Source: a bacterium (GTDB taxonomy: Bacteria; Planctomycetota; JAFGQW01). From it: a stretch of 64,000 nt of DNA. Shown here piece by piece: positions 14,083 through 36,177 of this stretch (positions are counted from its first letter, which is position 1; the number at the start of each line of letters is the position of its first letter). Below the pieces are notes generated by a model that did no database searches, was not told the DNA's origin, and saw nothing but the letters and a program-made list of their open reading frames with translations. The stretch covers positions 768,861-832,860 of the forward strand of contig JAUHXU010000001.1 in assembly GCA_030426805.1 (NCBI GenBank), in the 5' to 3' direction. The translations under genes were made by a program, and so were the position numbers.

Positions 14083-14155
14083 CTCGGCGTTCCGCGAAGT
14101 TTGGTATCCTGGCGCGATCCCGCAACCTTAGCTCCGTCCGGAGGCGAGTCGACCC

Positions 14156-17020: not shown

Positions 17021-19777
17021 TCAGCGGACGTAGTTGCCGGCGTCGCCCTGCAGGTTGCCGTCGGCGTCGATCCACGCGTTGAGCACGATGCCGGTCGTCG
17101 GATCGGTCAGGCGGCGGATCAGACGCGCACCGAGCGGGCCCGCGAGCCGCGGGTTCCGCGCGCCGTCGCGCATCACCGGCCCGATCGCCGGGTTGCGCAG
17201 CGCGTGGTTGCTCGACGCGGTCTCGGCGCCGGTCGCATCGACGATCTTGTCCAGGTTGTAGACGACGTTGTTCAGGTCGAACTGCGCCGCCGGCGCGGTG
17301 CCGGTTCCGCCCTTGCGGTTGTTGTCGTTGTCGAGCGGGTTGACCGGGAAGCCGTCCTTGTCGAACAGGAACAGCCCGCTGCCGAGGCCAGCGACCATGT
17401 GCACCCACATCGGCGACTCCATGTGGTTGCCCGGGTTCTTGCCGATGTGGTCGCGCAGCATGTTGAAGTCGAGGCTCGAGAAGTCGTCGTTCGCCATCGC
17501 CGCGCGGAACGCGTTGTACTGCGTGCCGTAGGTCTGCAAGCCGGTGTTCGTCAGGTGGCACGCGGCGCAGTAACGCGGCCCCTCGTCGGTCGGCGTGACC
17601 TTGCCGCGGATCGAGTGGGCCATGATCACGTTGTGCGACAGCGACGGGAAGCGGCCGGTGTTGCCCTGGCCGTTGCGATCGCTGAACGCGAACGTCTGCG
17701 ACTCGGTGTTGTTCCGGTCGTGCCACGTGAAGAACATCTTCGTGTTGGCGCACGTCTGGTGAATCTTGCCGTCGGCGCCCACCGCGAGCTGGAACGGCAC
17801 CGGGGACTGGTAGACGAAGTCGGCTTCCTTCTCGCGGAAGACGATCCGATCACCCGTGATGTTGCTGAAGTTGTTGCCGGTGTTGTATTCACCCTCGAGG
17901 TGGCAGCCCATGCACGTGTTCGTCCATGCGGAGTGGCACGACTGACACGTCATCGTGTCGGCGTGGCTGAAGCCGCTCAGCGGCGCACCCGTCTGCTGCG
18001 GACCGATGCCGGTCTGCGAGTTGCCGTCGGCGCGCCCCATCGCGAACGACGCCTTCGGGCTGTAGATCGGCGTGTTCGTGAACGGGTTTCGGCGGCCGGA
18101 GTCGACGACCGTATCACGCGTCTGCACGACGTAGTGCCGCTTGCCGGTCAGCTTGCTCGTCATGTAGAAGTGACCGTCCGGCTCCTTGACGACGTGTGCG
18201 AGCGGGTTGCCCTTGTCGTCCACCGCGACCTCGGCCGGGTTGCCGTTGAGATCGACGCCCTGGACCGTCGCCGCGTAGCCGTCGGCGGTGCCGTGGCACG
18301 AGACGCACTGGATCGACGTCGCGTGCTCCATCCGGCTCGCGATGTTGCTGCGCGGGTCGTTCACGTTGCCGCCGTGGAGGTCGTAGCTCCCGTGGCAGTC
18401 GATGCAGCCCATGCCCGCGTCGTAGTGCACGTCGGCCGGCGTGTCGTCGCGGCCGTCCCCGTCGTAGTCCTCGAACAGGATGTACTGGTTCGCGTTTCGC
18501 CCGTTGAACGTCCGGTTGCCGACGGCCGGGTCGAACAGGCGCGTGTCGTTCGCCGTGTTGCGGAACGCGACCGGCTGCGCCGGATACTGGTGGCGACGGC
18601 GCAGATCCTGGTTCTGATCGAGCCGGATGCCCCAATACTGCATCACGGTGCGGTTGGAGCCCTGGTGGCAGCCCGCGCACGTGTAGTCGTCGATGCCTTC
18701 GACCGTCTGGTTGTTCGGCAGCGTCCGCTTGACGCTGCGGATCCGGTGCGCGCGGACGTGCGCGAGTTCCGGCGGGTCGATGTCGTCGGGGTCGACCGGC
18801 TCGAGCTTGTTGACGTTCGGGTCGCGGCTGCGACTCTTGCCGTCGAGGCTGTACGGCATGTGGCACGCCGTGCAGCCCGACGAGCGGAAGTCGCCGTAGC
18901 GGTTGTTCGCCCCGGCGCTGCCCAAGTGGCAGTCGCCGCACGTGAACGCGACCTGCTCGTGGTAGAGGTGCGCCAGCGGCGAGTCGGTCGTGACGCGGTT
19001 GTCCGCCTCGAGATACTGCGGCAGGTTCGCCGAGTCGTAGGCGGGGTTGTTGAAGATCTGGTTCGGCCCGGTTTGGCGCTGGCTGTAGACCGGGAACTCG
19101 ATCAGCTCCCCGACGGTCCCGAAGCGCGTCGGGTCGATCTGGAACGACGGATCGACGACCGCGCGGAACGACATGTCGGCCGCGGTGTTCTCGTAGAGCC
19201 CGACGTTCTGCGACACCTTGTTGTCGGCACCCGCAGCGTACAACGCGCCGGAGAAGATCCCCGTCGCCGTCGCGAGCGTGCTGCCGGCGACCTTGTCCGC
19301 GTGCGGGAGGTGGCACTGCCCGCAGCCGCGCGCCTGCGTCGCGACGCGGAGGTCACCCGGGTTGATGAACTGCAGGTAGTCGAGCGCGGTGTAGGACCGG
19401 CCGCCGGCGGTGTAGTCCGCGACCTTGTCGAGCCCCGTCAGCGTGAGGCGGTTGAAGTAGGCCGTGCGGTTGTTGCGCCAGTTGTTGCGGTCACCGATCT
19501 CCGGCGGCGGCGGCACGTGGCTCGAGTCCTTGTCGGTGCCGTTCGGGTTGCCGCCGTGGCACGTCACGCAGCGCAGCTGGTCGGCACCGGGGAACGGGTG
19601 CGGGTTCTCGAGGCCGGGTCCCGCGTAGTCGTGCTCGAGTGATCCGTTGTGGCACTTCATGCACGACGAGGCCGCGGCCGCGACGTCGACGCGGTTGCCG
19701 GAGTCCCCGCACCCGGTCGCGACGAGCGCGAGCGCAGCAGCGAGCATGAAACGCAACGTGAGTTGAACCGGTGCCAT
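17021..19777 (-). CDS. Multiheme c-type cytochrome lipoprotein with 11 CxxCH motifs (candidate outer-surface electron-transfer cytochrome)
   Basis: 918 aa. Lipoprotein signal MAPVQLTLRFMLAAALALVATGC. CxxCH motifs: CMKCH, CVTCH, CGQCH, CGDCH, CTACH, CAGCH, CIDCH, CVSCH, CQSCH, CMGCH, CAACH. Confidence 0.85.
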   Translation of the reverse strand: MAPVQLTLRFMLAAALALVATGCGDSGNRVDVAAAASSCMKCHNGSLEHDYAGPGLENPHPFPGADQLRCVTCHGGNPNGTDKDSSHVPPPPEIGDRNNWRNNRTAYFNRLTLTGLDKVADYTAGGRSYTALDYLQFINPGDLRVATQARGCGQCHLPHADKVAGSTLATATGIFSGALYAAGADNKVSQNVGLYENTAADMSFRAVVDPSFQIDPTRFGTVGELIEFPVYSQRQTGPNQIFNNPAYDSANLPQYLEADNRVTTDSPLAHLYHEQVAFTCGDCHLGSAGANNRYGDFRSSGCTACHMPYSLDGKSRSRDPNVNKLEPVDPDDIDPPELAHVRAHRIRSVKRTLPNNQTVEGIDDYTCAGCHQGSNRTVMQYWGIRLDQNQDLRRRHQYPAQPVAFRNTANDTRLFDPAVGNRTFNGRNANQYILFEDYDGDGRDDTPADVHYDAGMGCIDCHGSYDLHGGNVNDPRSNIASRMEHATSIQCVSCHGTADGYAATVQGVDLNGNPAEVAVDDKGNPLAHVVKEPDGHFYMTSKLTGKRHYVVQTRDTVVDSGRRNPFTNTPIYSPKASFAMGRADGNSQTGIGPQQTGAPLSGFSHADTMTCQSCHSAWTNTCMGCHLEGEYNTGNNFSNITGDRIVFREKEADFVYQSPVPFQLAVGADGKIHQTCANTKMFFTWHDRNNTESQTFAFSDRNGQGNTGRFPSLSHNVIMAHSIRGKVTPTDEGPRYCAACHLTNTGLQTYGTQYNAFRAAMANDDFSSLDFNMLRDHIGKNPGNHMESPMWVHMVAGLGSGLFLFDKDGFPVNPLDNDNNRKGGTGTAPAAQFDLNNVVYNLDKIVDATGAETASSNHALRNPAIGPVMRDGARNPRLAGPLGARLIRRLTDPTTGIVLNAWIDADGNLQGDAGNYVR

Positions 19778-20011: not shown

Positions 20012-20944
20012 ATGAAGATGCGTCAACGCCTGATGACCGTCGCACTCGCGACCCTGGTCGGCACCGCCGCCGCCCAGAACCAGCCGTGGATCGACCTCGA
20101 GGCGAACCGGACGACGACGTTCAACTCGTCGTCGACACGAGGCCTCCAGTGCACCGCCCCGATCGACTTCACCGTCGTCGGCGTCGAGGTGCCGGACCCG
20201 AACAACCAAGGTCGCCAGTCGGTCGCGGTGTTCAGGATGACCGCCAAGGCGCCCGCGTTCAGCGCCAGCACGATGCTGACACCGGACTTTGCGGCGATCG
20301 ACGTCGCGTCGGGCTCGATCATTCCGGTCTCCCCGCCGGTGACGATCCAAGGCAGCCAGGGCGAGTGGCTCGGCGTGCTCGGCGCGTGCAACACGGGTCC
20401 CGGCGCGACGATGAACAACGTCTACGCGGCGAACTCTGGCGTCTGGATGAACGGCCGGATCGGGGGCAATACGGTCCCGGTCTACCGCTTCCTGACGCAG
20501 TCGAACTTGTCGACCCTCGGCACCACGGTCGTCGCGTCGAGCGAGGACGCGGGCTTCGTCAGCAACGTCCACGTCTACATCGTCGCGCACGGCGTCGACA
20601 ACGCAGCGCCCAACCCGGGCAACACGGTCACGCTGACGTGCGAGGCGGGCGCCGAGGCGACCTCCGGCCAGTACATCTGCGCCCTGTCGCTCGGCACCGG
20701 TCCGATCGTGCTTCCGTTCGGTTCGATCGGCCTTTCGCCGGACGGGCTGTTCCTGATTACCGCGCAGAACCTGATCCCCACGATCTTCTCGAACAGCCAG
20801 AGCCTGCTCGACGGCAATGGTGAGGGCCAGCCGCAGGTGAACATCCCGAACATCCCGGCGCTGATCGGCACGTCGATCTACTCGACGTTCATCACCCTCC
20901 CGAGCCTGACGATCGCGTCCACGAGTTCGTTCAAGATCTCGTAG
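20012..20944 (+). CDS. Secreted hypothetical protein with the shared C-terminal domain
   Basis: Signal peptide MKMRQRLMTVALATLVGTAAAQ. C-terminal ...LGTGPIVLPFGSIGLSPDGLFLITAQN...LLDGNGEGQPQVNIPNIPALIGTSIYSTFITLPSLTIASTSSFKIS aligns with the other tails. Confidence 0.7.
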   Translation: MKMRQRLMTVALATLVGTAAAQNQPWIDLEANRTTTFNSSSTRGLQCTAPIDFTVVGVEVPDPNNQGRQSVAVFRMTAKAPAFSASTMLTPDFAAIDVASGSIIPVSPPVTIQGSQGEWLGVLGACNTGPGATMNNVYAANSGVWMNGRIGGNTVPVYRFLTQSNLSTLGTTVVASSEDAGFVSNVHVYIVAHGVDNAAPNPGNTVTLTCEAGAEATSGQYICALSLGTGPIVLPFGSIGLSPDGLFLITAQNLIPTIFSNSQSLLDGNGEGQPQVNIPNIPALIGTSIYSTFITLPSLTIASTSSFKIS

Positions 20945-21008
20945 CGCCGTCTCGACGGAGAACCACGACGCCGGCACCCCTCGCGGGTGTCGGCGTTTTT
21001 TCGTCGCG

Positions 21009-21668
21009 TCAGCGGACCGACACCTGGTCCCAGCGCGTCGGCATGTGGCAGCGGTCGCAGCGGTCGACGAGTCCCAAGTTGATGTGCGGCGGGTTCGTGG
21101 CTCGCTGCAGATCGTCGCGGTGACAGGTCACACACTCGTTGTCGACCGGCTGGAACGTCCCGACCCAGCCACCGGGGTGGCAGCGGTGGCACGCCGTGTG
21201 CGCGTGGGCGCCGGTGAGCGGGAATCGCGTCCGCGAGTGCATCTCGATCATCCCGACCGGTTGCCACGTCGACTCCTGGTGACAGCGCGTGCACGTGGAA
21301 CCGAGTGCGCCCTGGTGCACGTCCTCGTGGCAGCCCGCGCAGCCCTTCGCCGCGAAGACCCGCACCGGCCCGCGATCGTTGTGGCAGCGCAGGCATCGGG
21401 CGTTCGCGTGCGCCCCCTCGAGTGCGACCCCGGTCTCTTTCTCGTGGTCGAACGCGAAGTCGTCGCGCAACGTCTCCCAGTCGTCGCCGACGTGGCAGAG
21501 GCTGCAGTCGGCGGGAAAATTCTCGTGTGGCAGCACCGGTCCGAGGCCGGCCCACCAGCGGTGCAGGCCGCTGCTGCGGACGCCCTGCGTCACGCACGCG
21601 GCGATCACGAGCGGCGCGACGAGTGCGAGCAGCGTCGCGCGGGCGCGAAACGAGGGGCGCTCGGACAC
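21009..21668 (-). CDS. Heptaheme c-type cytochrome (probable periplasmic lipoprotein), last gene of the cytochrome/porin operon
   Basis: 219 aa. Signal peptide with possible lipobox LVIAAC. Seven CxxCH motifs: CSLCH, CLRCH, CAGCH, CTRCH, CHRCH, CVTCH, CDRCH. Confidence 0.8.
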   Translation of the reverse strand: MSERPSFRARATLLALVAPLVIAACVTQGVRSSGLHRWWAGLGPVLPHENFPADCSLCHVGDDWETLRDDFAFDHEKETGVALEGAHANARCLRCHNDRGPVRVFAAKGCAGCHEDVHQGALGSTCTRCHQESTWQPVGMIEMHSRTRFPLTGAHAHTACHRCHPGGWVGTFQPVDNECVTCHRDDLQRATNPPHINLGLVDRCDRCHMPTRWDQVSVR

Positions 21669-21669
21669 G

Positions 21670-23376
21670 TCAGAAGCTCCTCTGCAGGAAGAACCCGAAC
21701 GACACCGACGTATCGCGATCGAAGAAGACGGTGTCGAGGTAGACCGACCCGTCCCAACCGCGCCCGAACGAGAGCCCCCCGCTCGCCCGCACGCGGTGCT
21801 GGACCAGATCGTTCAACCGATCATCGAAGCCGACCTGATGGCGGTTGGAGAACTCGTAGAAGAGCTCCCACCGCCCCGTCGCTCCGATGCGACCGTAGCT
21901 GATTCGACCGCCCGCGTCACTCTCGAAATCGGCGAGTGTGCCGAATGCGGTCAGGTCCAAACGGTCGCCGCCGGCGAACACGTCGAGGAACTCGAGCCCC
22001 GCCTCGGCGGCTCCGCCGGCGTCGTCCTCGTCGTTGAAGCCGCTGAGGCTGCCGTGGAACCGCGTCGAGTCGCCGAGCCCGAACCACCCCTCCAGCGCGA
22101 GCCGATCGTAGTGGTTGCGATCGATGTCGCGCGCGTCGGGCGGCAGGTAAGCGGTGCGCAGCAGCTCGGGGAACCGGTAGCGCGTGTAGACGAGGTCGAG
22201 TTCGTCGCCGTTGTCGAAGCGCCGTCCGATCGACGCGACCGCCTGCGTCAGTTCGACGCCGTCCTTCAGTTGATCGCGTCCGTAGTAGACGTCGATCCAC
22301 GTCGTCGCCCGCATCTCCCAGCCGTCGAGCGGGATCGAGCGCACCTTCGCGACGATCAGATCCCGGTCGCTCTTGCCGTGGTGCCACGTCTTCTGCAGGC
22401 CGGCGGTGATCGTCAGCTGCTCGTGGACGTCGGACGTCCACTGGTAGAACGCCGAGACCTGGAAGTCGGCGCCCGTCTCGAAGTCGTCGGTCGGCTCCGG
22501 GAGGAAGCCGATCGCGGCGCCGAACGACGACCGCTCGCCCCGGCGCATCCACTCGACGCCGTCGAGCACGCCGAACTCGGGCATGCCGACCGGCAGGAAG
22601 CGCCCGATCTCCCACCGCGCCTCGTCGAAGCGGGTGCCGCCGAGCGCGTACGACAAGCGCCGCGGGAGGATGTCGAGGCCGCTCTTGTCGTTCTGTTCCT
22701 TCTTGTAGTTGATCTCGGTGTCGAGCTGGAAGCGACCGCCGTAGCCGAACGCGTTGTCGACGTCGAGGGCCGTGCCGATGCGGAAGAACGAGTTCGCCCA
22801 CCCGTCGAACTCGGTGTGCGTCAGCGCGCCCGACGAGTAGATACGACCGGTGACCCGCCGCCGTCGGTCCTCCGGCTGCAGCGGTTTCACGCCCGCGAGC
22901 AACGGCATGCCCGGCTTGTAGGCGTCGTCCTTGTTCTCCCACGTGACCTTGACACCGGGTGCGTTCGCACCGGCCGACGGCTCGGCCGGTTTCGGCTCCT
23001 GGGGGACGGGCTCGGCGGGCTTCGGGTCAGGCTCGGACGGCCGCACGACGCGCTCGGCCCGCGCTCGCGGGATGCGAACCTCGCCGCGCATGCCGACCGT
23101 CGGCTTCAGCCCCGGATCGGTGACCTCGACGACCGCGCTCCGTTCGTCCACCCGCACGACGACGCCCGCGTAGCGGCCACCCGAGCGCGGGAAGAAGTGG
23201 ACGAGATCGCCCCCCGCGACCTTGTCACGCGCACCACGGTCGACGACGACGGTCCGCTCCTGCCCGACCGACGTGATCCGCAGACGGACGCGCCGATACG
23301 GATCGTCTTGCGCGGACGCCACCGTCACGGACGAGCAGGCGAGCGCGCAGAGCAGGAGCAGGCCGACGAGTCGCAC
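21670..23376 (-). CDS. Outer-membrane beta-barrel (porin-like) protein, candidate porin of a porin-cytochrome conduit
   Basis: 568 aa. Signal peptide MRLVGLLLLCALACSSVTVASAQ. N-terminal soluble domain plus Pro/Glu-rich linker (PKPAEPVPQEPKPAEP), then alternating amphipathic strands rich in G/Y/F/W/D, and a C-terminal ...FGFFLQRSF (terminal Phe). One-nt gap to the next gene. Confidence 0.7.
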   Translation of the reverse strand: MRLVGLLLLCALACSSVTVASAQDDPYRRVRLRITSVGQERTVVVDRGARDKVAGGDLVHFFPRSGGRYAGVVVRVDERSAVVEVTDPGLKPTVGMRGEVRIPRARAERVVRPSEPDPKPAEPVPQEPKPAEPSAGANAPGVKVTWENKDDAYKPGMPLLAGVKPLQPEDRRRRVTGRIYSSGALTHTEFDGWANSFFRIGTALDVDNAFGYGGRFQLDTEINYKKEQNDKSGLDILPRRLSYALGGTRFDEARWEIGRFLPVGMPEFGVLDGVEWMRRGERSSFGAAIGFLPEPTDDFETGADFQVSAFYQWTSDVHEQLTITAGLQKTWHHGKSDRDLIVAKVRSIPLDGWEMRATTWIDVYYGRDQLKDGVELTQAVASIGRRFDNGDELDLVYTRYRFPELLRTAYLPPDARDIDRNHYDRLALEGWFGLGDSTRFHGSLSGFNDEDDAGGAAEAGLEFLDVFAGGDRLDLTAFGTLADFESDAGGRISYGRIGATGRWELFYEFSNRHQVGFDDRLNDLVQHRVRASGGLSFGRGWDGSVYLDTVFFDRDTSVSFGFFLQRSF

Positions 23377-23379
23377 GCG

Positions 23380-25467
23380 TCACTTCCCCTGGTTGCGGAA
23401 CGGATCGCGATTGCCACCGTGGCAATCCACGCAGCGCCTGCCGAGCGGCTTGTATCGCACGAAGGTCACGCCCTTCTCGCGCACCGGCTGGTGGCACGCG
23501 CGACAGGCGAGACCGCGGTGCGCCTCGTCGAGCGGGAACCGCGAATCGCGATCGTGATCAAAGGAGAGATCGGTAAATCGCGTCGTCCCGCTGTGGCACC
23601 GCTCGCAACTCGTCTCCCCGCCGATGCGGAACTGCCCCGCATGGGGGTCGCCGTGGCAGTCCGCGCACCGGGTCCCCTTCGCCCACGTAACCGCCCGCTG
23701 CGTCACGGGATCGGGCGCGTCGAGCGGCGCGTGACACGCCGCGCAGCCGGCCTTGGCGTGGGCGCCGTCGAGCGCGAATCCGGTCCACGCGCCGTGGTCG
23801 AATCCTCGGGGAAAATCCCGGAACGACGCGGTCGTGTGGCAACGCGCACAGTCCGTTCGGCCTTCGACCGACGTCGGAAGGCCGGCTCGGTCGAACGCGC
23901 CGCGGTGCGGATCGGCGTGGCACGCCGCACATCCGGTCGCCCCGGCGATCGGTGCGATCGCACGCCCGAAGCGCCGCCCGAATGCGTCCGGCGTGTCGCT
24001 GCGCCCGTGGCACGCCTCGCACCCGATCTCGGCGTGCGCGCCGTCGAGCGCGAAACCCGTCCAGCGCGCGTGATCGAATCCACGCGGACGCTCGGAGAAA
24101 CTCACGCTGTTGTGGCAGTGCGCGCACCCGCCGCCGTCGCGGACGGCCGGCGAGAGGTCGTCGGCCTTCGCGAGGAACGGCTCGAAGAACCCGCGATGCG
24201 CGTCGCCATGGCACGCGACGCAGCCGGAGCGGATGCCGCGGAACCGTCGCGGCCCGCCGCCGTCGGGTTCGCGATGGCACGACGCGCACCGCGCCTCCCG
24301 GTGCTTGCCCGTCAGCGGGAACCCGGCCGCGGCGTGGCGCTCGAGCGTGAACGCGTGGGGCGTGAACTCCGTGCGACCGTGACAGGCGATGCACGACGTG
24401 CGCTCGGTCGCCGCATCGCGGAACTGCCCCCCGTGCGGGTCCGCGTGACACGCCTCGCAGCCCGACGGATCGCGGCCCGGGTGGCGCGCGCGGTAGTTGC
24501 CCTTCGGTCCGCGGTGGCACTCGGCGCACTTGACCGTGTCGTGCGGCGCATCGAGCGCGAAGCCGGTGCACGCGTGTTGTTCCGGTGTCACCGTGAGTCG
24601 CTCGTCGTGCCACGACGTGTGCTCGGGCCGGTGGCACGACGCGCACGCGAGGCCGCTGGCGACGCCGTCCAACGCCGCAACGCCCTCGACGAGTGCGGCG
24701 CGGTGTGGCGATTCGTGGCAGTCGGCGCACGTCCGCGCGAGCACGCCGTCGTCGCGGCCGAAGCGCTCGAGCGCGTGCGACGAACCGTTTTCGTGGCACG
24801 TGCGGCATGCGACCCGTGCGTGCGCGCCGGTCAGCGCGAGAAAGCGCTCGTGCCCCACCGGTATGCGCTCGGTGAACGACTCCTGGTGATGGCACGTCGC
24901 ACACGCGAGCCCCATCTGTCCGCCGTGCGGATCTTCGTGGCAGCTCCGACAGTCACGGCTCGCCCCGAGGAAGCGTTTCGCGCCGGCGGGCAACTCGGCC
25001 GTGTCGGCGTGCTCGTGGCACTCGACGCACGCGAGTTCGAGGTGCTTGCCCGCCATCGGAAAGCCGATCGCGGCATGGTCGAAGCCGTTCTTCCCCGTGA
25101 ACCCGGCGAGCTCGAAGCTGCGGTCGTTGACGAGCGCGAAGGACGCGCCGTGGTGGTCGCTGTGGCACCGGGCGCACGCGGACGCGAGCGCCGGCTCGAG
25201 CGCACCGTGCAATCCGGTGCGGTTCGCGAGTTGATCGCCGATCGGCTCGTGGCACTCGAGGCACGCACTCGCCATGTCCCCCGACCAGCCGCCGTGGCAG
25301 GCCGCGCACGCCGCGCCGCCGTCGAGTCCGTCCGCGTGGGCGTGAACCGCGGCGATCGGCCCCGGTGACGACCGGTCGAGGTCGCCGAGCACGACGTAGA
25401 GCACGCCGATGACCGACAGGCACGCGACGCCGAGCGCGCGACGTCGGGCGGCCGGGGAGGCGCTCAC
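23380..25467 (-). CDS. Giant multiheme c-type cytochrome with 23 CxxCH motifs (c7/c3-like tandem repeats)
   Basis: GTG start overlapping the upstream stop (GTGA). Signal or TM segment ALGVACLSVIGVLYVVLG. Twenty-three CxxCH motifs in repeated F.L.G.H....C..CH...PH units. Confidence 0.8.
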   Translation of the reverse strand: MSASPAARRRALGVACLSVIGVLYVVLGDLDRSSPGPIAAVHAHADGLDGGAACAACHGGWSGDMASACLECHEPIGDQLANRTGLHGALEPALASACARCHSDHHGASFALVNDRSFELAGFTGKNGFDHAAIGFPMAGKHLELACVECHEHADTAELPAGAKRFLGASRDCRSCHEDPHGGQMGLACATCHHQESFTERIPVGHERFLALTGAHARVACRTCHENGSSHALERFGRDDGVLARTCADCHESPHRAALVEGVAALDGVASGLACASCHRPEHTSWHDERLTVTPEQHACTGFALDAPHDTVKCAECHRGPKGNYRARHPGRDPSGCEACHADPHGGQFRDAATERTSCIACHGRTEFTPHAFTLERHAAAGFPLTGKHREARCASCHREPDGGGPRRFRGIRSGCVACHGDAHRGFFEPFLAKADDLSPAVRDGGGCAHCHNSVSFSERPRGFDHARWTGFALDGAHAEIGCEACHGRSDTPDAFGRRFGRAIAPIAGATGCAACHADPHRGAFDRAGLPTSVEGRTDCARCHTTASFRDFPRGFDHGAWTGFALDGAHAKAGCAACHAPLDAPDPVTQRAVTWAKGTRCADCHGDPHAGQFRIGGETSCERCHSGTTRFTDLSFDHDRDSRFPLDEAHRGLACRACHQPVREKGVTFVRYKPLGRRCVDCHGGNRDPFRNQGK

Positions 25468-27695
25468 CGCCCCGCTCCGAGCGACACCGAGCCGTAGACG
25501 AGCGCGTGCACGATGTGGACCACGACCAGCAGCACCATCCCGGCGGCGACCCAACGGTGGAAGTAGCGCCACGATCCGAGCAGCGCGCGCAGATCCTCGA
25601 AGTGCGCGACCATCACCGCGGTGCGATGGGCCGATCGCGCCAGGCGCACGGTCGCCTCGACCTGCGGCGTCGCGATCCCCTCGGCGCGGCCCGCGGTCCG
25701 CAACGTCGTCACGAGTCGGCGAAGATCGCGGTGCCCGCCGAGCAACGCGACGAGTCGTCCGAAGAACGTCGCGCGCCATCGGCGACGCTCGACGAGCGCT
25801 TCGACCGCGTCTTGGGCCCGACGATGAAACGTGCGGTCGCCCTCGGGCCATGCGTCGACGATCCGACGAAGACGGTGACGTACCTCGGAGAGTTCGAGCT
25901 CACGCCCGTTCGCCGCACGGGGCACGTAGGCGTAGAAGTAACGACCGATCGCACCGGTGACGAGCAGGATACCCAGCGCCCAGAACGCATGCCCCCCCGG
26001 CGTGTCGCCCGGTGCCATCGCGCCGTGCACGAGTGCGCACAGCATCGCGAGGATGCCGGTCGCGACGTGACTCGTCATCCACGCGCGCAGCGAACCGAAC
26101 GAGAACGGGACGCGCGGCGCGCGGCGCAGCAGGTAGAGCAGGTTCACGACGATCATCGTGACCGACGCGATCCCGAGCGCGAGCCCGAGGCCGCGACCCG
26201 GGCGCAACCAGTCGTGCTTGTCGTGCGTCGGGCGTGCGACGAGTTCGAGGAAGTAGTAGTCCGCATGCACGAGCGTCCAGGCGAGCGTGACGAGCGCGAG
26301 CGCCAAGCCGGTCCCGAGCGCGAGGCGCAACCCGGTGCCCTGCTCGACGACCGGCGGCGGCAGCGTCCGGTGCGTCGGGTCGAACGACACGCCCGAGCGC
26401 TCGAGCGTCTCGTGCGGCGCGACACCGCCGATCATCACGAAGACGTCGTCGTTCGCGAGGATCCGGGTCTCGACCGTGTCGCCGTCGTCCACCTCGAGCT
26501 CGACCGCGTCCGCACGGATCTCGGTGACACGGCTCCGCAGCACGACGTCGATCGCCCCGCGCGCGACCGCTTGTGCGAGGTGCTCCTCGTTGCGCGACCG
26601 AATGCGGTGCCAGGCATCGCGCCGATACGAGAGCGTCACCCGATTGTCCGGCTGTTCGGCGAGCGCGACCGCGGTCTCGACCGCGCTGTCGCCGCCACCG
26701 ACGACGAGAATCCGTCGGCCGGTGTACGCCTGCGCATCGAGGAGGCTGTAGACGACCTTCGGCAGCGACTCGCCGGGCACGTCGAGCTTGCGCGGCAGTC
26801 CGCGACGACCGAGTGCGAGGCAGACGTGTTCGGCGTCGATCGCGTGGCGATCGGTGTGCACGCGATACCCGCCTCGGGCGGAGCGCTCGACGCCGGAGAA
26901 CGCGGTGTTGTGTTCGATCGGCAACGCGTGCGCGGCGGCGACGTCCTGCCACAGCGCCATCAGCTCTTCCTTCGAGTAGCTCGACCGATCGAGCAAGCCG
27001 TGCAGCGGAAGCTCCACCGGTTGGGTCATCACGAGCTTCTGACGGGGATACGTCGCGACGGTGCCGCCCACACCGTCGGCCTGGTCGATCGTCACGAAGC
27101 GAAGCCCCTGTCGCTTCGCCTCGAGCGAACACGCGAGCCCGGCGGGGCCGGCGCCGACGATGCAGAGATCGAAGCGCTCGGGGTGTGTGTGCGGCCGTTC
27201 GGCGACGCGACGCGCGACCTCGCGACCCACGGACGCCCCCTGGTCGATCGCGGACTTGATGCGCGCGTGCGCGGTGACTTCCCCGGCGAGGAAGAGGCCC
27301 GGCGAGCCGACCGCTTCGAGGTCCGCCTCGAGCGCCGGCACGTCACGGCGGTCCTCCAGGTTCGCGAGCGTGACGGTGATCGCGCCGACCGGGCACTCGC
27401 GCTCACACGCCGAGATCCCGACGCAACGCGCACCGTTGACGACGGTCGCTTGCCCGTGGGCGATCGCGAGGACACCGTCCTCCGGGCAGACCGCGACGCA
27501 CGTCGCGCACCCGAGGCACCGCGTCAGGTCGATCACCGGGTGCTGGAGCCGCGCCTCGGCGACCTCGGCCTGCGCCGCCCGATCGCGGTCGCGCAGCGTC
27601 CGACGCATCCGATCGATTTCCGCACGCCGCGACCGCATCGCGAGACACGCGATGCCGAGCGCGAGTGTGAGACCTACGAGGAGGGCCCAACCCAC
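25464..27695 (-). CDS. Membrane-anchored 4Fe-4S ferredoxin plus FAD/NAD(P)-binding pyridine-nucleotide-disulfide oxidoreductase, fused to a C-terminal multi-TM His-containing (cytochrome-b-like) domain
   Basis: 743 aa. N-terminal TM. 2x[4Fe-4S] motifs CLGCATCVAVCP and CVGISACERECP. Rossmann GxGxxG (DLCIVGAGPAGLA). C-terminal roughly 250 aa with several hydrophobic helices bearing conserved His (LVHAD, SHVATG, LVHGAM). Confidence 0.7.
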   Translation of the reverse strand: MGWALLVGLTLALGIACLAMRSRRAEIDRMRRTLRDRDRAAQAEVAEARLQHPVIDLTRCLGCATCVAVCPEDGVLAIAHGQATVVNGARCVGISACERECPVGAITVTLANLEDRRDVPALEADLEAVGSPGLFLAGEVTAHARIKSAIDQGASVGREVARRVAERPHTHPERFDLCIVGAGPAGLACSLEAKRQGLRFVTIDQADGVGGTVATYPRQKLVMTQPVELPLHGLLDRSSYSKEELMALWQDVAAAHALPIEHNTAFSGVERSARGGYRVHTDRHAIDAEHVCLALGRRGLPRKLDVPGESLPKVVYSLLDAQAYTGRRILVVGGGDSAVETAVALAEQPDNRVTLSYRRDAWHRIRSRNEEHLAQAVARGAIDVVLRSRVTEIRADAVELEVDDGDTVETRILANDDVFVMIGGVAPHETLERSGVSFDPTHRTLPPPVVEQGTGLRLALGTGLALALVTLAWTLVHADYYFLELVARPTHDKHDWLRPGRGLGLALGIASVTMIVVNLLYLLRRAPRVPFSFGSLRAWMTSHVATGILAMLCALVHGAMAPGDTPGGHAFWALGILLVTGAIGRYFYAYVPRAANGRELELSEVRHRLRRIVDAWPEGDRTFHRRAQDAVEALVERRRWRATFFGRLVALLGGHRDLRRLVTTLRTAGRAEGIATPQVEATVRLARSAHRTAVMVAHFEDLRALLGSWRYFHRWVAAGMVLLVVVHIVHALVYGSVSLGAGR

Positions 27696-27722
27696 GGTGT
27701 CATCCCTCCCCGCTGCGGTGGT

Positions 27723-28481
27723 CTACCGCGTCGTGTCGGTGCTCCCGGTGTCCGACGACGGGCGAATCGTCGCCGGCTCGTCGGTCGGCTCGACGTCCAC
27801 CGCGGGCGTCTCGACCGAGACCGGCATCGCCGCCGAGTCGTTGTAGCGCCGTGCGGCGTCGAGCAGCGTCGCGATCTTGACGTCGAGCGACTCGACCATG
27901 CCGATCAGCCGGGTCGCGTCGCCGCGCAGCGACGCGAGCGTCGCCGGGTTGAAGTCGTGGCTGAGGAACAGCGCGCGGTCGCGCAGGACGCGGTTCAAGT
28001 TGTCCAGCTCGGTCTGCACCGGCATCGACGCGGTGACGACCGCGTCGTAGCGCTCGCGGCTGCCGACGAGGCGCGTCAGGCTGCGCAGGCGCATCTCGGA
28101 ATCGCTGAATCCCTCGAGGCTCGTCGTCCACTGCTCGAAGACCGGCGCCGCATCGGTGCGCATCTGCTCGACCGCGGCACGGAGTTCCTCGGCCTGCTGC
28201 TCACTGCGGTCGATCGCATCGGTGAGCTGCTGATGCCCCCACTGCGCGTTGCCGTCGAAGTCGGGCGACAGGATGGTCCCGAGCACCTCGATCGCCGCAT
28301 GACTGCGCGTCCGGGTCACCTCTGCCGCGACGTGCACGCGCTCGACCGAGTTGACGAGCACGTTGACCGACGCGGGGCCGGTCTTCTTCGTCGACAAGAG
28401 CGAGCATCCGCCGAGCACCGAGACCGCCAACCCGATGGCGCAGGCGCGGTTGAGTAGCGTAGTCATATCCCGTAACATCCT
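27723..28481 (-). CDS. Hypothetical lipoprotein, first gene of the cytochrome/porin operon
   Basis: Internal start MLRDMTTLLNRACAIGLAVSVLGGC (lipobox). Mostly helical, Glu/Arg-rich periplasmic protein. 27-nt gap to the next gene. Confidence 0.55.
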   Translation of the reverse strand, partial: RMLRDMTTLLNRACAIGLAVSVLGGCSLLSTKKTGPASVNVLVNSVERVHVAAEVTRTRSHAAIEVLGTILSPDFDGNAQWGHQQLTDAIDRSEQQAEELRAAVEQMRTDAAPVFEQWTTSLEGFSDSEMRLRSLTRLVGSRERYDAVVTASMPVQTELDNLNRVLRDRALFLSHDFNPATLASLRGDATRLIGMVESLDVKIATLLDAARRYNDSAAMPVSVETPAVDVEPTDEPATIRPSSDTGSTDTTR

Positions 28482-28612
28482 CTCCACTTCCTCTCTGCGA
28501 CGATCGGCAGTTCTCCCGGCGGGCTTTAGGACGATCCGCGGCGGTTCCCCGGCGAGACGATCCGCACGCCGGCTAACGCTGCCTGGGGCCGGCGGCCGAC
28601 ATACGGGACACG

Positions 28613-29698
28613 ATGAGTACGACAATCTCCAGCCGACTCGGCCTCGCGATGATGCTCGTGGCGCTGCTGCTGGCCGGGTGCGGCGTCGACGGCCCCCGCC
28701 AGATCACCCGTACGCGCACGGGCGCGCCCATGCGCCAGCTCGACGCGTCGACCGCGCTACGCTTCGGATTCACCGGCGCGGCGTCGCCGCACGGTGGCGG
28801 CACGCCCTCGACACGCCCGAGCCCCGAACAGGGGATCGCCGAGTTGCTGCGGTGGACCGTGCCGCCCGGGTGGGAGTCGCTGCCGCCCAAGCCGTTTCGC
28901 GTCGTGAACCTGCTCGCCGACGGCGCCGAGTGCTACGTCACCTACGTGGCCGGCGGCGGCGCACAGGGCAACATCAACCGCTGGCGCGGCCAGATGGGCG
29001 CCGACCCGCTCGACCCCGCGGCGATCGACAAGCTCGCGACATCCCGGATCCTGGGCCGTCGCGCGCACCTCGTCGACCTCGAGGGCACCTACCGCGGCAT
29101 GGGCGGCAAGGCGCGCGACGGCATGCGCATGCGAGCGATCTACGTCGGGTTCCCCGCGTTCGCGCTGTCGATCAAGATGATCGGCCCGCGTGACGTCGTC
29201 GAGGCGAACCGGGCCAAGTTCGACGCGTTCTGCGTCTCGCTCGCGTTCGCGCAGGAGACCGCGCCCGCTCCGACCGAAGGGGCGAGCAGCGCCGGAACCG
29301 GATCGCTCGGGTGGACCGCACCCGACGGATGGCGCGAGGAGCGGGGCAGCGGCATGCGCCACGTGACGTTCCGCCCGTCCGACACGTGCGAGTGCTACAT
29401 CCTCTTCCTGCCGGAGCAAGGCGGCGGACTGCTCGCGAACGTCAACCGTTGGCGGCAGCAGATGGGGCGCGGGCCGCTCGATCGCGACGGCCTCGCCAAG
29501 CTGCCGACGACGACGATCCTCGGCGCGAAGCAACCGTGGCTCGAGGTCTTCAGCGAGGCGGGCCAGGGCATCCTCGCGATCGCGAGCCCCTATGCAGGTC
29601 AGACATTGTTCGTGAAAATGATCGGGCCGGCCGAGGAGCTGCGCGCGCAGCGCGACGCGTTCCTCGCGTTCTGCGGATCCCTTCGGAGCGACCGATGA
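28613..29698 (+). CDS. Hypothetical lipoprotein built from an internal tandem duplication of a roughly 140 aa domain
   Basis: Lipoprotein signal MSTTISSRLGLAMMLVALLLAGC. Two homologous halves (WTVPPGWESL...CYVTYVAGG.QGNINRWRGQMG...FALSIKMIGP...FDAFCVSLAF versus WTAPDGWREE...CYILFLPEQGGGLLANVNRWRQQMG...LFVKMIGP...RDAFLAFCGSLR). Confidence 0.6.
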   Translation: MSTTISSRLGLAMMLVALLLAGCGVDGPRQITRTRTGAPMRQLDASTALRFGFTGAASPHGGGTPSTRPSPEQGIAELLRWTVPPGWESLPPKPFRVVNLLADGAECYVTYVAGGGAQGNINRWRGQMGADPLDPAAIDKLATSRILGRRAHLVDLEGTYRGMGGKARDGMRMRAIYVGFPAFALSIKMIGPRDVVEANRAKFDAFCVSLAFAQETAPAPTEGASSAGTGSLGWTAPDGWREERGSGMRHVTFRPSDTCECYILFLPEQGGGLLANVNRWRQQMGRGPLDRDGLAKLPTTTILGAKQPWLEVFSEAGQGILAIASPYAGQTLFVKMIGPAEELRAQRDAFLAFCGSLRSDR

Positions 29699-32600
29699 CG
29701 ACGTCCTCGACCGACGCGCGCACGGCGAACCCCGCGCGGTGGCTCTTTCGCTTGATCGCATCCCAGGGACTCGCGTGCCTGATCCTGATCGCGCTGATGG
29801 TGATCACCTACTTCGGCACGCTCGCACAGATCGATCGCGGACTCGTGCAGGCGCAGAAGGACTACTTCGACAGCTGGATCTGCTGGCTCGACCTGCCGCT
29901 CGTCGGGATCCCGTTCCGCATGGCCTTCCCCGGCGGTGTGACGTTGCTCACGCTGCTCGCGGTGAACCTGATCGTCGGCGGCCTGTTGCGCCTGCGCTGG
30001 AACAAGCGCACCGCCGGGATCGCGATCGTCCACCTCGGCATCATCGGCCTGCTCGTCTCGGGGCTCGTCAAGTTCGTCGCGTCGACGAACGGGTTCCTGC
30101 AGCTCGATCCCGGCCAGTCCAAGTCGAACTACACGAGCTTTCACGAGTGGGAACTCGTGATCGGCGAACCGAAGGGTGACGGCACGCTCGTCGAACACCT
30201 GATCGACGACCGCGCGATCCGCACGCCGGGCGAGCACGCGTCGCCGGCCCTGCCGTTCACGGTCCGCATCGATCGCTTCATCGAGAACGCGCGGCCGCGC
30301 CGCGCGCGGACGTCCGACGCACGCGACGTCGTGGACGGCTTCTACCTCGAGCCGCTCGAACGCACCGCGCAAGCGAGCGCGAACACGCCCGGCGTCTACG
30401 TCGACGTGCTCCCGCGCGACGGCTCGCGCCAACGCGGCCTCCTGTGGGGGCTGCAGCGCCAACCGTGGACGGTTCGAATCGACGGCGTCCCGTGGACGAT
30501 CGATCTGCGACGCCGCGTCTACGACCTGCCGTACGCGGTGCGCCTCGAGCAGTTCCGCAAAGAGGAGCACCCCGGGGTCACGACGCCGCGCCATTTCTCG
30601 AGCGATGTCACGAAGATCCAGGACGGCACGGAGCAGAAGTTCCACATCGCGATGAACCGGCCGATGCGTGACGGCGGGTTCATGCTGTCGCAGAACAACT
30701 GGGGGCCGCAAGACGGACGCCCGGGCCCCTACTTCACGGTGCTCGAGGTCTCGAGCAACCCGGCCGACCAGTGGCCGAAGTACATGTGCTACGTCATCGC
30801 GTTCGGATTCGTGCTGCACTTCGGGCGCAAGCTCCTCACGCACGTTCGACGCCAGCGCGCGAAGGCGACCGCCGCGGCCGCGCTCGGACTCGTCGCGCTG
30901 TTCGGCGGGTCGGTCGCGGCACAGGACGCGGCACAGGGCGCGCCGCGGCCGCGCACCGAGCCGTGGCCGCAGGAGATCCTCGACCGCGTCGGAAAGATCC
31001 CGGTGCAGGAGGGCGGCCGCATCAAGCCGCTCGCGACGTTCGCCGGGTTCCAGATGCTCGGCATCAACGGCAAGCGCACCTTCCGCACCGAAGACGGCGA
31101 GACGCTGACGCCGGTCGCGTGGCTGCTCGACTGCTGGTTCTTCCCCGAGCAGGCCACCCACTACCGCGTGGTGACCGTCGACGACCTCCGGGCGCTCGAG
31201 AGCGTCGGGATGGACGTCACGGGGCGCGAACGGCGCGACCGCTACTCGCTCACCGAACTCGACCCGGTGCTTCAGAAGCTCGGGCTGCAGGCGCGGCGCT
31301 TCAGCCTCAAGCCGTCGAACGCGCGCACCGCACTCGAACGACAGGTGATGACGGTCGCCCGACGGGCGTCGCAGCTCAAGTACCTCGTCACGTTCCTCGA
31401 CTTCGCGCGCAAGCGCATCGACCCGCGCGAGCACGACGCGCTTCGCGACGCGTTCGCCGGCCGCGAGTCGATCTCGTTGCTCGACCTCGTCGCGGTGTTC
31501 CCGAAGGTGCGAAGCGCGGTGATGGGTGATCCCCACGATCCCCATGGCGAGAAGCCGAACGCACTGCTCGAGGTGCTCGGCCGTACGCTCGACGGCGCGT
31601 CCGCCGTCGCGCTCCTGCCGCCCCGCGACGCGAACGACGAAGCGTGGCGCACGCCCGAGACCGTGATGACGATCGTGCTCCGCGGCGACGGCGATGCGAC
31701 CGCGCTCGACGAGCTGCGCCGCTTCGAGCCGCTCGTCGCGGCACGGGGCGACTTCACCGCGCTCGGCGAGGGAATCGCCGCCTTGGAGAGCGACCTCGTC
31801 GCCCGCGCGAGCGCGCGGGGCGAATACGACCGCGTGGAACTCGAGGTCTCGTTCTATCGGATGGACTGGTTCTACCGGGCGCTGTGCTGCTTCCTGCTCG
31901 CGTTCGTCGTGTGCGCGATCGGTTGGATCCGACGCCACGGCGCGATCTACGCGAGCGCGTGGGTGCTCGTCGTCGCCGGCGAGCTCCTGCTCGTGACCGG
32001 CATCGTCATCCGGTGCCTGATCCGTCAGCGCCCACCGATCACGACGCCCTACGAGGCGATCCTGTTCATCATCGCAGTCGGCGTGCTCGTGATCCTGTTC
32101 ATCGAGTGGATCCGACGCAACGCGATCCCGCTGTCGTTCGCGACCGTCGTCGGTTCGCTCGGGCTCGTCGTCGCCGCGTGGCACGAGCGCATCGAAGGCG
32201 TCGACACGATGCAGCCACTCGTCGCCGTGCTCGACACGAACTTCTGGCTCGCGACGCACGTGACGACCGTCACGCTCGGATACTGCGGCGGCCTGCTCGC
32301 CGCGCTCGTCGCCCACGTGACGATCTTCGGCCGCCTCTTCGGCTTCCGTCGCAACGACCCCGGGTTCTACCGCGACCTCGGCCGGATCACGTACGGCATC
32401 CTCGGCTTCGGCGTCGTGTTCGCAACGGTCGGGACGATCCTCGGCGGCGTGTGGGCGAACGACAGCTGGGGCCGTTTCTGGGGTTGGGACCCGAAGGAAA
32501 ACGGCGCGCTGATGCTCGTGCTCGGCTACATCGTGATCCTGCACGCGCGGATGGGCGGCCACATCAAAGACCACGGCATGGCCGTCGCGTCGGTCCTGCT

Positions 32601-32790
32601 CGGCATCATCGTGATGTGGGCCTTCTGGGGCGTGAACCTCTACCAGGTGGGTCTCCACAGCTACGGTTTCACCGAGACCAAGCGTCAGGCGACCGACCTC
32701 TACTACGCGGTCGAGGGCGTCGTCGCGCTGATCGGCCTGATCACGCCGCTCCTCCCCCACGTCCACCGACGCGACCCCGGCCCCGCGTAA
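29695..32790 (+). CDS. ccsBA: Fused cytochrome c biogenesis protein CcsB(ResB)-CcsA(ResC), System II heme export and ligation
   Basis: ATG overlaps the upstream stop (ATGA). The N-terminal half is a ResB-like polytopic region. The C-terminal half has the CcsA WWD signature WGRFWGWDPKENGALM and conserved His. Confidence 0.8.
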   Translation: MTTSSTDARTANPARWLFRLIASQGLACLILIALMVITYFGTLAQIDRGLVQAQKDYFDSWICWLDLPLVGIPFRMAFPGGVTLLTLLAVNLIVGGLLRLRWNKRTAGIAIVHLGIIGLLVSGLVKFVASTNGFLQLDPGQSKSNYTSFHEWELVIGEPKGDGTLVEHLIDDRAIRTPGEHASPALPFTVRIDRFIENARPRRARTSDARDVVDGFYLEPLERTAQASANTPGVYVDVLPRDGSRQRGLLWGLQRQPWTVRIDGVPWTIDLRRRVYDLPYAVRLEQFRKEEHPGVTTPRHFSSDVTKIQDGTEQKFHIAMNRPMRDGGFMLSQNNWGPQDGRPGPYFTVLEVSSNPADQWPKYMCYVIAFGFVLHFGRKLLTHVRRQRAKATAAAALGLVALFGGSVAAQDAAQGAPRPRTEPWPQEILDRVGKIPVQEGGRIKPLATFAGFQMLGINGKRTFRTEDGETLTPVAWLLDCWFFPEQATHYRVVTVDDLRALESVGMDVTGRERRDRYSLTELDPVLQKLGLQARRFSLKPSNARTALERQVMTVARRASQLKYLVTFLDFARKRIDPREHDALRDAFAGRESISLLDLVAVFPKVRSAVMGDPHDPHGEKPNALLEVLGRTLDGASAVALLPPRDANDEAWRTPETVMTIVLRGDGDATALDELRRFEPLVAARGDFTALGEGIAALESDLVARASARGEYDRVELEVSFYRMDWFYRALCCFLLAFVVCAIGWIRRHGAIYASAWVLVVAGELLLVTGIVIRCLIRQRPPITTPYEAILFIIAVGVLVILFIEWIRRNAIPLSFATVVGSLGLVVAAWHERIEGVDTMQPLVAVLDTNFWLATHVTTVTLGYCGGLLAALVAHVTIFGRLFGFRRNDPGFYRDLGRITYGILGFGVVFATVGTILGGVWANDSWGRFWGWDPKENGALMLVLGYIVILHARMGGHIKDHGMAVASVLLGIIVMWAFWGVNLYQVGLHSYGFTETKRQATDLYYAVEGVVALIGLITPLLPHVHRRDPGPA

Positions 32791-35661: not shown

Positions 35662-36005
35662 GCGACTCCGCGCGTCGGCGCGTCGGACGCGCACGCGATA
35701 CACAATCGCGTATAGGGGATGGCGTCCAACCGCGCGACGCCGATCGCCTCGTCGCACGACTCGCACGCGCCGTACTCGTTCGCGTCGAGCCGCTGGAGTG
35801 CGGCGACGATCTCGCGGTAGGTGTCGCGGTCCTTCTCGAGGAACGCGATCGTCGCGGACTGCCCCTGGGTCAGTGTCGCCAGGTCGTCCTCGCCGGCGTC
35901 GATCGCGGCCGTCTCGCCTTCGAGACGCTCGAGATCCGAGCGGTACATCCGCCCGAGTTCCACGAGGCGCCGGCGCAGCCTCGCCTTCGGCAGGGAACGT
36001 GGCAT
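35658..36005 (-). CDS. DksA/TraR-family C4-type zinc-finger protein
   Basis: Start MPRSLPKARL with a strong GAGAGGAG RBS. C4 zinc finger CESCDEAIGVARLDAIPYTRLCIAC, preceded by a coiled-coil region. Confidence 0.65.
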   Translation of the reverse strand: MPRSLPKARLRRRLVELGRMYRSDLERLEGETAAIDAGEDDLATLTQGQSATIAFLEKDRDTYREIVAALQRLDANEYGACESCDEAIGVARLDAIPYTRLCIACASDAPTRGVA

Positions 36006-36177
36006 GGTTCGTCTCCTCTCTGAGCTCTCCTCCGCGGCCCGGTGCTCTTCCGTTCGCTCCGGCGCCGCGGGCAGATGCAACAACGCGCCGAGCGTCCGAA
36101 AGAGCAACACGATCCGGTTCCCGGGTCGCGGGTGTGCCCACTTGCCCGTCCGACCCGGCCGCGATAGGCTCGCGGCC

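Follow-up and report, generated by a model that had tools for sequence, protein, structure and literature searches.

The closest described counterpart of the system reported here is PCC3, which He et al. defined in 2017 along with PCC4, both as hypothetical porin-cytochrome clusters (PMC5566968). An inner-membrane protein of ~300 amino acids (aa), a periplasmic cytochrome in which the median number of haems is 21, a porin and a cytochrome outside the cell make up PCC3 (PMC5566968). The membrane proteins of PCC3 and PCC4, which are not homologous to each other overall, have five transmembrane (TM) helices, two WX3HX13H motifs and an SGXXG motif on the helix between these, and He et al. likened them to the haem domain of NOX/FRE and proposed that they are quinone-active cytochromes b (PMC5566968). 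In Gallionellaceae, the PCC3 periplasmic subunits carry 21, 24 or 27 haems, and their function is still untested (PMC9900912; 2025 bioRxiv preprint). PCC3 has been discussed as a candidate Fe(II) oxidation system (PMC5566968; PMC9900912; 2025 bioRxiv preprint). Here, we focus on a gene cluster in a 64,000-nucleotide (nt) stretch of a planctomycete genome (assembly GCA_030426805.1, contig JAUHXU010000001.1, positions 768,861 to 832,860), referred to below as the window. We predict, with a probability of roughly 60%, that this cluster encodes a PCC3-like trans-envelope conduit that carries electrons from cytoplasmic NAD(P)H, probably NADPH, to an extracellular acceptor. An earlier note, made from the sequence of the window, had proposed a porin-cytochrome conduit with its own inner-membrane oxidoreductase, and this is still the best reading: the barrel is a true one, the cytochromes are wire-like, the genes are coupled and their synteny is conserved. 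The genes in question are the following.

27723..28487, minus strand: DUF2959 lipoprotein, first gene of the operon, with lipobox LGGC and an uncertain start (28487, 28478 or 28466)
25464..27695, minus strand: 743-aa inner-membrane fusion protein of a ferredoxin domain, a flavoprotein domain and a five-TM domain
23380..25467, minus strand: 695-aa 23-haem c-type cytochrome with an N-terminal membrane anchor and c7-type repeats
21670..23376, minus strand: 568-aa outer-membrane protein with a signal peptide, forming a 22-strand beta-barrel
21009..21668, minus strand: 219-aa 7-haem lipoprotein cytochrome, last gene of the operon, with lipobox IAAC and a Pfam Cytochrome_C7 match
17021..19777, minus strand: 918-aa 11-haem lipoprotein cytochrome with lipobox ATGC, separated from the operon by a convergent gene

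The G+C content of the window is ~70%, and long spurious open reading frames (ORFs) are therefore frequent. All five minus-strand ORFs between 21009 and 28487 are present as previously listed, and as their third-position GC (GC3) is high (0.87–0.92, as in real genes here), we regard them as real coding sequences. GC3 drops in the upstream extensions of two of the five. An 823-aa form of the 23-haem ORF was rejected as an over-extension, with a GC3 of 0.52 upstream of 25467 and homologues that start at the GTG at 25467. The upstream edge of the operon had been placed at 28481, where there is no start codon; the in-frame candidates are GTG at 28487, ATG at 28478 and ATG at 28466. Translational coupling links the five genes. 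A GTGA overlap joins the fusion gene to the 23-haem gene and the barrel gene lies 1 nt from the 7-haem gene, both as had been described, whereas the 23-haem gene and the barrel gene are 3 nt and not 4 nt apart. The 27 nt between the DUF2959 gene and the fusion gene contain a ribosome-binding site, GGGGAGGG. A promoter scan of the region returned nothing exceeding chance, and the one strong terminator of the region (20967..20997), which lies just beyond the operon, is that of the convergent gene 20012..20944.

To follow the cluster across genomes, one genome per species was scanned with a profile of the barrel, and the loci found were tabulated by ORF prediction and BLAST. This yielded 80 loci, nearly all labelled Planctomycetota, and the synteny of the cluster is conserved in about 80 Planctomycetota species. 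The fusion gene, the 23-haem gene and the barrel gene follow each other in this order and on one strand in 65 of the 66 loci that have all three core genes. As this order recurs so consistently, the arrangement is far beyond chance. Haem counts are also nearly fixed: 23 motifs were found in 62/66 homologues, 7 in 63/67 and 11 in 56/56 (full-length proteins for the 23- and 11-haem counts). In 56 of 65 loci, the 7-haem gene is followed directly, within 400 nt, by the 11-haem gene. The fusion protein has numerous homologues of ~740 aa that are 56–64% identical to it, and the named ones come from Planctomycetota metagenome-assembled genomes (MAGs). Three long contigs share an extended series consisting of a ~200-aa protein, ResB, CcsA, DUF2959, the fusion protein, the 23-haem cytochrome, the barrel and the 7- and 11-haem cytochromes, with the ResB/CcsA set missing from one of them and the 11-haem gene from another. 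A minority variant (genome and metagenome loci L077, L082, L083 and L086) encodes a 26-haem cytochrome, a barrel and a 17-haem cytochrome, without the DUF2959 and 11-haem genes; the MAG isolate 'new MAG-31' holds this variant (L082) together with the standard form (L039). Among cultured organisms, Engelhardtia mirabilis (strains Pla86 and Pla133) has a homologue of the barrel.

The three cytochromes contain 23, 7 and 11 CxxCH motifs, in agreement with the earlier counts, and a motif scan of their translations found no CxxCK in any of them. The 23-haem protein, with ~30 residues per haem and 56 His, matches Pfam Cytochrome_C7 (E = 2.3e-28), and its profile matches the dodecahaem 'nanowire' GSU1996 (3ov0, 3.5e-9) and MtrA (6r2q_A, 2.3e-5), with a C-terminal third that is MtrA/DmsE-like. 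It is presumably a wire that spans the periplasm. Where a variant cluster is missing the 11-haem protein, the counterpart of the 7-haem protein is lengthened to 10–29 haems, which suggests that the 7-haem protein faces outwards. Of all components, the 11-haem protein is the best conserved, with a mean column identity of 68%, 12 invariant His outside the haem motifs and many further invariant residues there. It has a partial match to NCBIfam ExtM (4.9e-25, below the cut-off), a Pfam match to MtrC/MtrF domain II/IV (31.3 bits) and short, weak NrfA-like stretches; presumably, it is a terminal reductase at the cell surface. Both lipoproteins would be extracellular. Catalytic cytochromes of the nitrite or hydroxylamine type were considered and rejected, as CxxCK is absent, there are enough His for bis-His ligation, and the NrfA-like stretches are weak and short. 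By their motifs and profile matches, the cytochromes are best described as putative c7/GSU1996/MtrA-like wires without a catalytic CxxCK motif.

The protein encoded between the 23- and 7-haem cytochromes had been taken for an outer-membrane barrel ending in Phe. Its predicted structure bears this out: residues 174–567 fold as a 22-strand beta-barrel (pLDDT 84) and the sequence ends in ...QRSF. The protein has no Pfam or NCBIfam match, and MtrB is a generic fold match only. A TonB-dependent receptor or an unrelated porin was rejected, since the protein lacks any plug or receptor signature and its gene is flanked by two cytochrome genes in 65/66 loci. Unusually among porin-cytochrome barrels, the one in the window is preceded by a small N-terminal beta domain of about 80 residues (~27–108) and a disordered linker rich in Pro, Glu and Lys (residues 110–150, PEPKPAEPVPQEPKPAEP). 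The beta domain could link the barrel to the wire in the periplasm or anchor it to the cell wall.

The 743-aa fusion protein would give the cluster its distinctive entry point. It had been described as a ferredoxin joined to an FAD/NAD(P) oxidoreductase and a His-rich multi-TM domain, and Pfam and NCBIfam recovered the same architecture: a 4Fe-4S dicluster domain, Pyr_redox_3/Pyr_redox_2 and a C-terminal multi-helix, His-rich domain. Residues 3–20 form an N-terminal TM helix. Among 35 homologues, the ferredoxin domain has seven invariant Cys (C60/63/66/70 and C91/97/101), and at position 94, where the second motif would have its second Cys, 35/35 have I, H or V instead. Read from these residues, the domain bears what is the classical signature of one [3Fe-4S] and one [4Fe-4S] cluster. 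The flavoprotein domain (residues 175–442) contains GAGPAG (181–186) and GGGDSA (333–338), both invariant in the same homologues, and a Y357-R358-R/K359...R364 cluster that is invariant or nearly so. It scores 137.5 bits against PF13738 (Pyr_redox_3; cut-off 30), and by sequence (E = 2.7e-20 in the PDB) and fold its closest solved relatives are NADPH-dependent YpdA/Bdr, thioredoxin reductase (TrxR) and TrxR-type ferredoxin-NADP reductases; its PDB matches include 7a7b, 3cty and 5ygq. By analogy with the HRR motif of thioredoxin reductase, the Y-R-(R/K)...R cluster would point to NADPH as the donor. A thioredoxin reductase or bacillithiol-disulfide reductase proper was rejected, because the domain has no CxxC, stays below the equivalog cut-offs (145.7 against 339.9 for TIGR04018, YpdA) and is fused to Fe-S and membrane domains.

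The membrane domain (residues 445–743, five TM helices) carries W539x3H543x13H557, TGAIG at 580–584 and W709x3H713x13H727. The four His, both Trp and G581/G584, which lie on the helix between the two His-bearing helices, are invariant in 35/35 homologues. The Lys and Arg charges of the loops obey the positive-inside rule and place the Fe-S/flavin domain and the nearest two His on the cytoplasmic side, and by the same charge bias both His-bearing helices run from cytoplasm to periplasm. As the two helices have the same orientation, H543 and H713 can share a haem on the cytoplasmic side, and H557 and H727 one on the periplasmic side. This domain is predicted to be a di-haem b module with two stacked bis-His b haems. 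Among TM domains of the family, 12/12 match DUF4405 and 11/12 match Ferric_reduct, all below the gathering scores (best E 1.6e-5 and 1.2e-5), and experiments on one DUF4405 protein have demonstrated that it binds haem b (PMC11334425). When the model of the fusion protein was submitted to a fold search, the flavoprotein domain accounted for most of the outcome, which was uninformative for the TM domain. The FAD, Fe-S clusters and b haems that we place in the protein are its probable cofactors as judged from these motifs.

The same module also exists in a split form. A phmmer search with the membrane domain returned 1276 cluster representatives, which fall into stand-alone proteins of ~300 aa, proteins of 380–560 aa with a disordered N-terminal extension and fusions of 740 aa (to 27% identity). 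Metagenome loci of at least 7 kb around the stand-alone ~300-aa protein contained a separate ferredoxin-flavoprotein gene in 30/30 cases, adjoining the membrane-protein gene in most and a few genes off in the rest. The separate ferredoxin-flavoprotein is ~450 aa long and 40–47% identical to residues 1–438 of the fusion protein, and it retains an N-terminal TM helix of its own in 5/5 examined. A c23-like cytochrome (16–29 haems) is present in all 30 loci and a c7-like one (10–29 haems) in most, and some loci also carry the barrel and the 11-haem gene. As the split flavoprotein keeps its TM helix and partners the membrane protein, the fused and split forms appear to be versions of one module, in which the link to the flavoprotein is conserved and not an accident of fusion. 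In a further set of loci (L149, L152, L153, L155, L156 and L162), a 5-haem protein, a membrane protein of ~258 aa, a 16-haem cytochrome and a separate ferredoxin-flavoprotein occur together, with no barrel within the metagenome sequence covered; this may be a periplasm-only version or reflect a different type of cell envelope. A third homologue search, with the TM domain alone, returned nearly exclusively fragments of the same fusion family. Its two apparent stand-alone matches were dismissed, one being a frameshifted gene and the other cut at a contig end.

Taken as a conduit, the cluster would work as follows. NAD(P)H would reduce the FAD of the TrxR/YpdA-type flavoprotein domain, from which electrons would pass to the membrane-tethered [4Fe-4S]/[3Fe-4S] ferredoxin domain and then cross the inner membrane via two bis-His b haems, one towards the cytoplasm, held by H543/H713, and one towards the periplasm, held by H557/H727. 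The 23-haem cytochrome, with its anchor in this membrane and a length that would suffice for the periplasm, would take them up next and pass them through the 22-strand barrel to the 7-haem lipoprotein, an order of the cytochromes within the barrel that we infer. The chain would end at the 11-haem surface lipoprotein, which would reduce an acceptor that is insoluble or cannot enter the cell, for instance minerals of Fe(III)/Mn(IV), humic matter or oxyanions of metalloids. That electrons flow outwards, that they bypass the quinone pool and what accepts them are conjectural parts of this scheme. The outward direction is favoured because NAD(P)H is the low-potential end and because the membrane potential aids the export of electrons and opposes their import. 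NOX/FRE and MsrQ with Fre are established analogues of such outward transfer. As outward electron flow is electrogenic and dissipates the membrane potential, the transfer step itself would conserve no energy. Its role is then likely to be the disposal of reducing equivalents or reduction chemistry at the cell surface, rather than proton-pumping respiration. More tentatively, and with somewhat less than even confidence, we suggest that the cluster forms a quinone-independent, NOX-like NADPH:extracellular acceptor oxidoreductase, in which a single chain of FAD, two Fe-S clusters, two b haems and 41 c haems would lead from the cytoplasm to the cell surface.

Several observations weigh against this interpretation, and they also define the alternatives. 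The membrane domain of the window scores below the Pfam gathering thresholds for DUF4405, Ferric_reduct and cytochrome b (19.4 bits against 28 in the comparison with PF01794/PF14358), and the AlphaFold model of the fusion protein is moderate (pLDDT 73, with the ferredoxin domain below 50). The membrane domain could hold a quinone site, and the earlier note had left the feed of the conduit as 'NAD(P)H or quinol'; of these two, the evidence favours NAD(P)H. If the domain is a quinone-reactive cytochrome b, the flavoprotein-ferredoxin module would be an NAD(P)H:quinone reductase, or the conduit would draw on quinol as CymA, ImcH and CbcL do. Either way, this would make it a quinol-linked porin-cytochrome pathway of conventional type to which a dehydrogenase has been added. 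All characterised Gram-negative conduits draw on the quinone pool, and the domain has weak profile matches to cytochrome b/b6 helices. A quinone-active cytochrome b is also what He et al. proposed in 2017 for PCC3 and PCC4 (PMC5566968). We nevertheless consider this unlikely: no quinone-site motif was identified in the membrane domain, its best matches, DUF4405 and ferric reductase, are electron-transfer modules fed by cytoplasmic flavoproteins (NOX; MsrQ with Fre), and the strict fusion to, or adjacency with, a membrane-tethered Fe-S/flavin module suits direct transfer better. The 11-haem protein raises a separate objection to an NAD(P)H-fed conduit that ends on minerals, as its mean column identity is that of an enzyme rather than of a simple wire. 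It could be the catalytic subunit of a dedicated reductase, extracellular or periplasmic, for a specific soluble substrate, such as selenite, tellurite or another oxyanion, organic disulfides, or O2, which would yield superoxide as NOX does. The invariant residues outside its haem motifs, the region that it shares with ExtM of the Geobacter selenite/tellurite reduction operon, its NrfA-like stretches and the NOX-like logic of the inner-membrane module all fit such a role. It strikes us as very improbable, however, as there is no CxxCK or open-site haem motif, the twelve invariant non-motif His suffice for 11 bis-His haems, and the variants without the 11-haem protein resort to a wire-like solution by extending the 7-haem homologue.

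The carriers of the cluster also count against the preferred reading. The only cultured species found with a barrel homologue, E. mirabilis, is an aerobic heterotroph, and we know of no report of metal reduction by it. Multihaem wires are reversible in principle, as in Mtr/Mto, so that the same hardware could run inwards and take up electrons from extracellular Fe(II), Mn(II) or a cathode, delivering them to the inner membrane and the cytoplasmic flavoprotein. Several carriers are OFTM MAGs (L027, L028, L045, L047 and L053), which stem from tunnel biofilms that oxidise Fe and Mn (PMC10732223). The candidate role of PCC3 in Gallionellaceae as an inward, Fe(II)-oxidising system points the same way, and its inner-membrane component is upregulated in iron-oxidising cells (PMC5566968; PMC9900912; 2025 bioRxiv preprint). 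Uptake of this kind is nonetheless quite unlikely on thermodynamic grounds, since the reduction of NAD(P)+ (about -320 mV) by electrons at the level of Fe(II) is strongly uphill and the import of electrons opposes the membrane potential; by domain annotation, in the window and in related loci, the cluster has no energy-coupling subunit. An outward conduit fed by NAD(P)H is still the reading that we prefer.

The remaining genes around the conduit are given here with their coordinates.

28613..32790, plus strand: divergent pair of a 361-aa lipoprotein and a fused ResB-CcsA, joined by an ATGA overlap
20012..20944, plus strand: secreted 310-aa protein without a family match, followed by a 13-bp hairpin and T-run (20967..20997)
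46842..52474, plus strand: CusB-like membrane-fusion protein with C-terminal YHS/TRASH metal-binding domains, then an AcrB/CusA-type RND pump of ~1350 aa
4597..7536, 13144..15235 and 35821..38274: glycine cleavage P protein, pyridoxal phosphate (PLP)-dependent enzyme, beta-lactamase-family protein and sulfatase

The product of the first operon gene matches Pfam DUF2959 (E = 1.8e-19; GC3 0.92), and in most related loci a DUF2959 match lies directly upstream of the fusion gene. The divergent gene at 29695..32790, previously called a fused ccsBA gene for haem maturation, indeed matches Pfam ResB and Cytochrom_C_asm as well as TIGR03144 (CcsB), and belongs to system II cytochrome c maturation. At least 13 related Planctomycetota loci likewise have a set of lipoprotein, ResB and CcsA upstream of their conduit genes. 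The 361-aa lipoprotein (28613..29698) has no Pfam or NCBIfam match and holds two internal repeats (GW.xPxGW ... NxNRWRxQMG); it may be a dedicated accessory of haem maturation. On the other side of the operon, the convergent gene 20012..20944 sits between the 7-haem and 11-haem genes. As these two are adjacent in 56 of 65 related loci, it is a lineage-specific insertion. The genes at 46842..52474, ~18 kb from the conduit, probably encode a heavy-metal efflux system. With housekeeping and planctomycete-typical neighbours and no obvious mobile element, the context of the conduit is that of the core chromosome.

To our knowledge, every well-studied Gram-negative pathway of extracellular electron transfer exits the inner membrane via a quinol-oxidising cytochrome (CymA, ImcH, CbcL or CbcBA). 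If the quinone-independent reading holds, the cluster represents an unrecognised class of inner-membrane entry point for extracellular electron transfer, widespread in Planctomycetota and present in its split form in other lineages. Such a conduit would be nearer to the NADPH oxidases and ferric reductases of eukaryotes than to respiration, and would act as an electron sink for redox balancing rather than for energy conservation. PCC3/PCC4-type membrane proteins would then be transmembrane exporters or importers of electrons and not quinol oxidases, which offers a concrete and testable function for a protein discussed since 2017 as possible iron-oxidation machinery. Planctomycetota are abundant in soils, sediments, wastewater and Fe/Mn-rich biofilms, and our results suggest that many of them may have a surface redox capacity that annotation as 'hypothetical' or 'NAD(P)-binding domain-containing protein' has missed. 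The barrel homologue in cultured E. mirabilis (Pla86 and Pla133) means that genetics and biochemistry may be feasible, provided that its genome holds the whole cluster.

How does the cluster compare with known systems? The earlier note had likened it to the Geobacter Pcc and Shewanella MtrAB modules. This holds for the conduit as such, but the closest described counterpart, as judged by motifs, gene order and haem counts, is PCC3. Both have the order membrane protein, periplasmic cytochrome, porin and extracellular cytochrome. The periplasmic subunit carries 21–27 haems in PCC3 and 23 here (26 in the variant), with few residues per haem in PCC3 and ~30 here, and the membrane domain has the same set of motifs, with T replacing S in SGXXG (TGAIG). 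The differences lie at both ends of the chain. Here, the membrane protein is fused or adjacent to a ferredoxin and a TrxR-type flavoprotein, and the PCC3 papers cited here mention no such partner (PMC5566968, PMC9900912). The outer part consists of a 7-haem and an 11-haem lipoprotein instead of one protein with 10–35 haems. For PCC3 porins, up to 42 transmembrane regions have been reported, compared with the 22 strands of the barrel in the window. The two systems also differ in their hosts, which are Planctomycetota here and Proteobacteria, e.g., Sideroxydans lithotrophicus ES-1, for PCC3. Porin-cytochrome conduits and the motif of the PCC-type membrane protein are already known. A literature search that covered little of the subscription journals turned up neither the cluster nor a flavoprotein that partners PCC-type membrane proteins. 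Within the searchable literature, three things thus appear to lack a description: the Planctomycetota cluster with its fixed 23, 7 and 11 haems, the conserved ferredoxin-flavoprotein partner, and the NAD(P)H-fed, quinone-independent entry that they would imply.

With the ExtABCD and OmaB/OmbB/OmcB conduits of Geobacter sulfurreducens, the cluster has in common a periplasmic multihaem cytochrome, a barrel and lipoprotein multihaem cytochromes. It resembles ExtABCD in the layout of the lipoproteins, as ExtABCD has two lipoprotein cytochromes after the barrel. The 23-haem protein shares c7-type repeats with GSU1996, and Pfam and NCBIfam gave no significant family matches to Geobacter conduit proteins beyond generic c7/c3 domains. 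In the window, the periplasmic subunit carries a membrane anchor and has roughly double the length, and where the Geobacter conduits are quinol-fed via the separate ImcH, CbcL or CbcBA, a flavoprotein fusion takes their place. Shewanella MtrCAB shares the logic of a cytochrome inside a barrel and a lipoprotein cytochrome at the surface, and the 23-haem protein weakly matches MtrA/DmsE, as the 11-haem protein does the MtrC/MtrF domain. Membership of the MtrAB/MtoAB/PioAB, DmsE or OmcA/MtrC families was rejected, as the scores are far below the cut-offs (64 bits against 192 for TIGR03508, DmsE) and the barrel has no family match.

At the inner membrane, the predicted di-haem b module also resembles NOX/FRE and MsrQ-Fre, di-haem proteins of the FRD superfamily that export electrons across the membrane, in which two b haems on two HX13H helices take electrons from an NAD(P)H-flavin module in the cytoplasm to the far side of the membrane. 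In the window, the flavin module is of TrxR/YpdA type, N-terminal and accompanied by an Fe-S domain, whereas NOX/FRE have a C-terminal dehydrogenase of FNR type. The TM domain in the window has five helices with a cytoplasmic helical insert of ~120 residues, and the proposed acceptor is a multihaem chain, in place of O2, an Fe(III) chelate or MsrP. The fused ferredoxin-flavoprotein-cytochrome b architecture, which the earlier note had called unusual, is so with respect to the literature but not in nature, where it recurs in hundreds of Planctomycetota homologues of ~740 aa and is accompanied by the split form.

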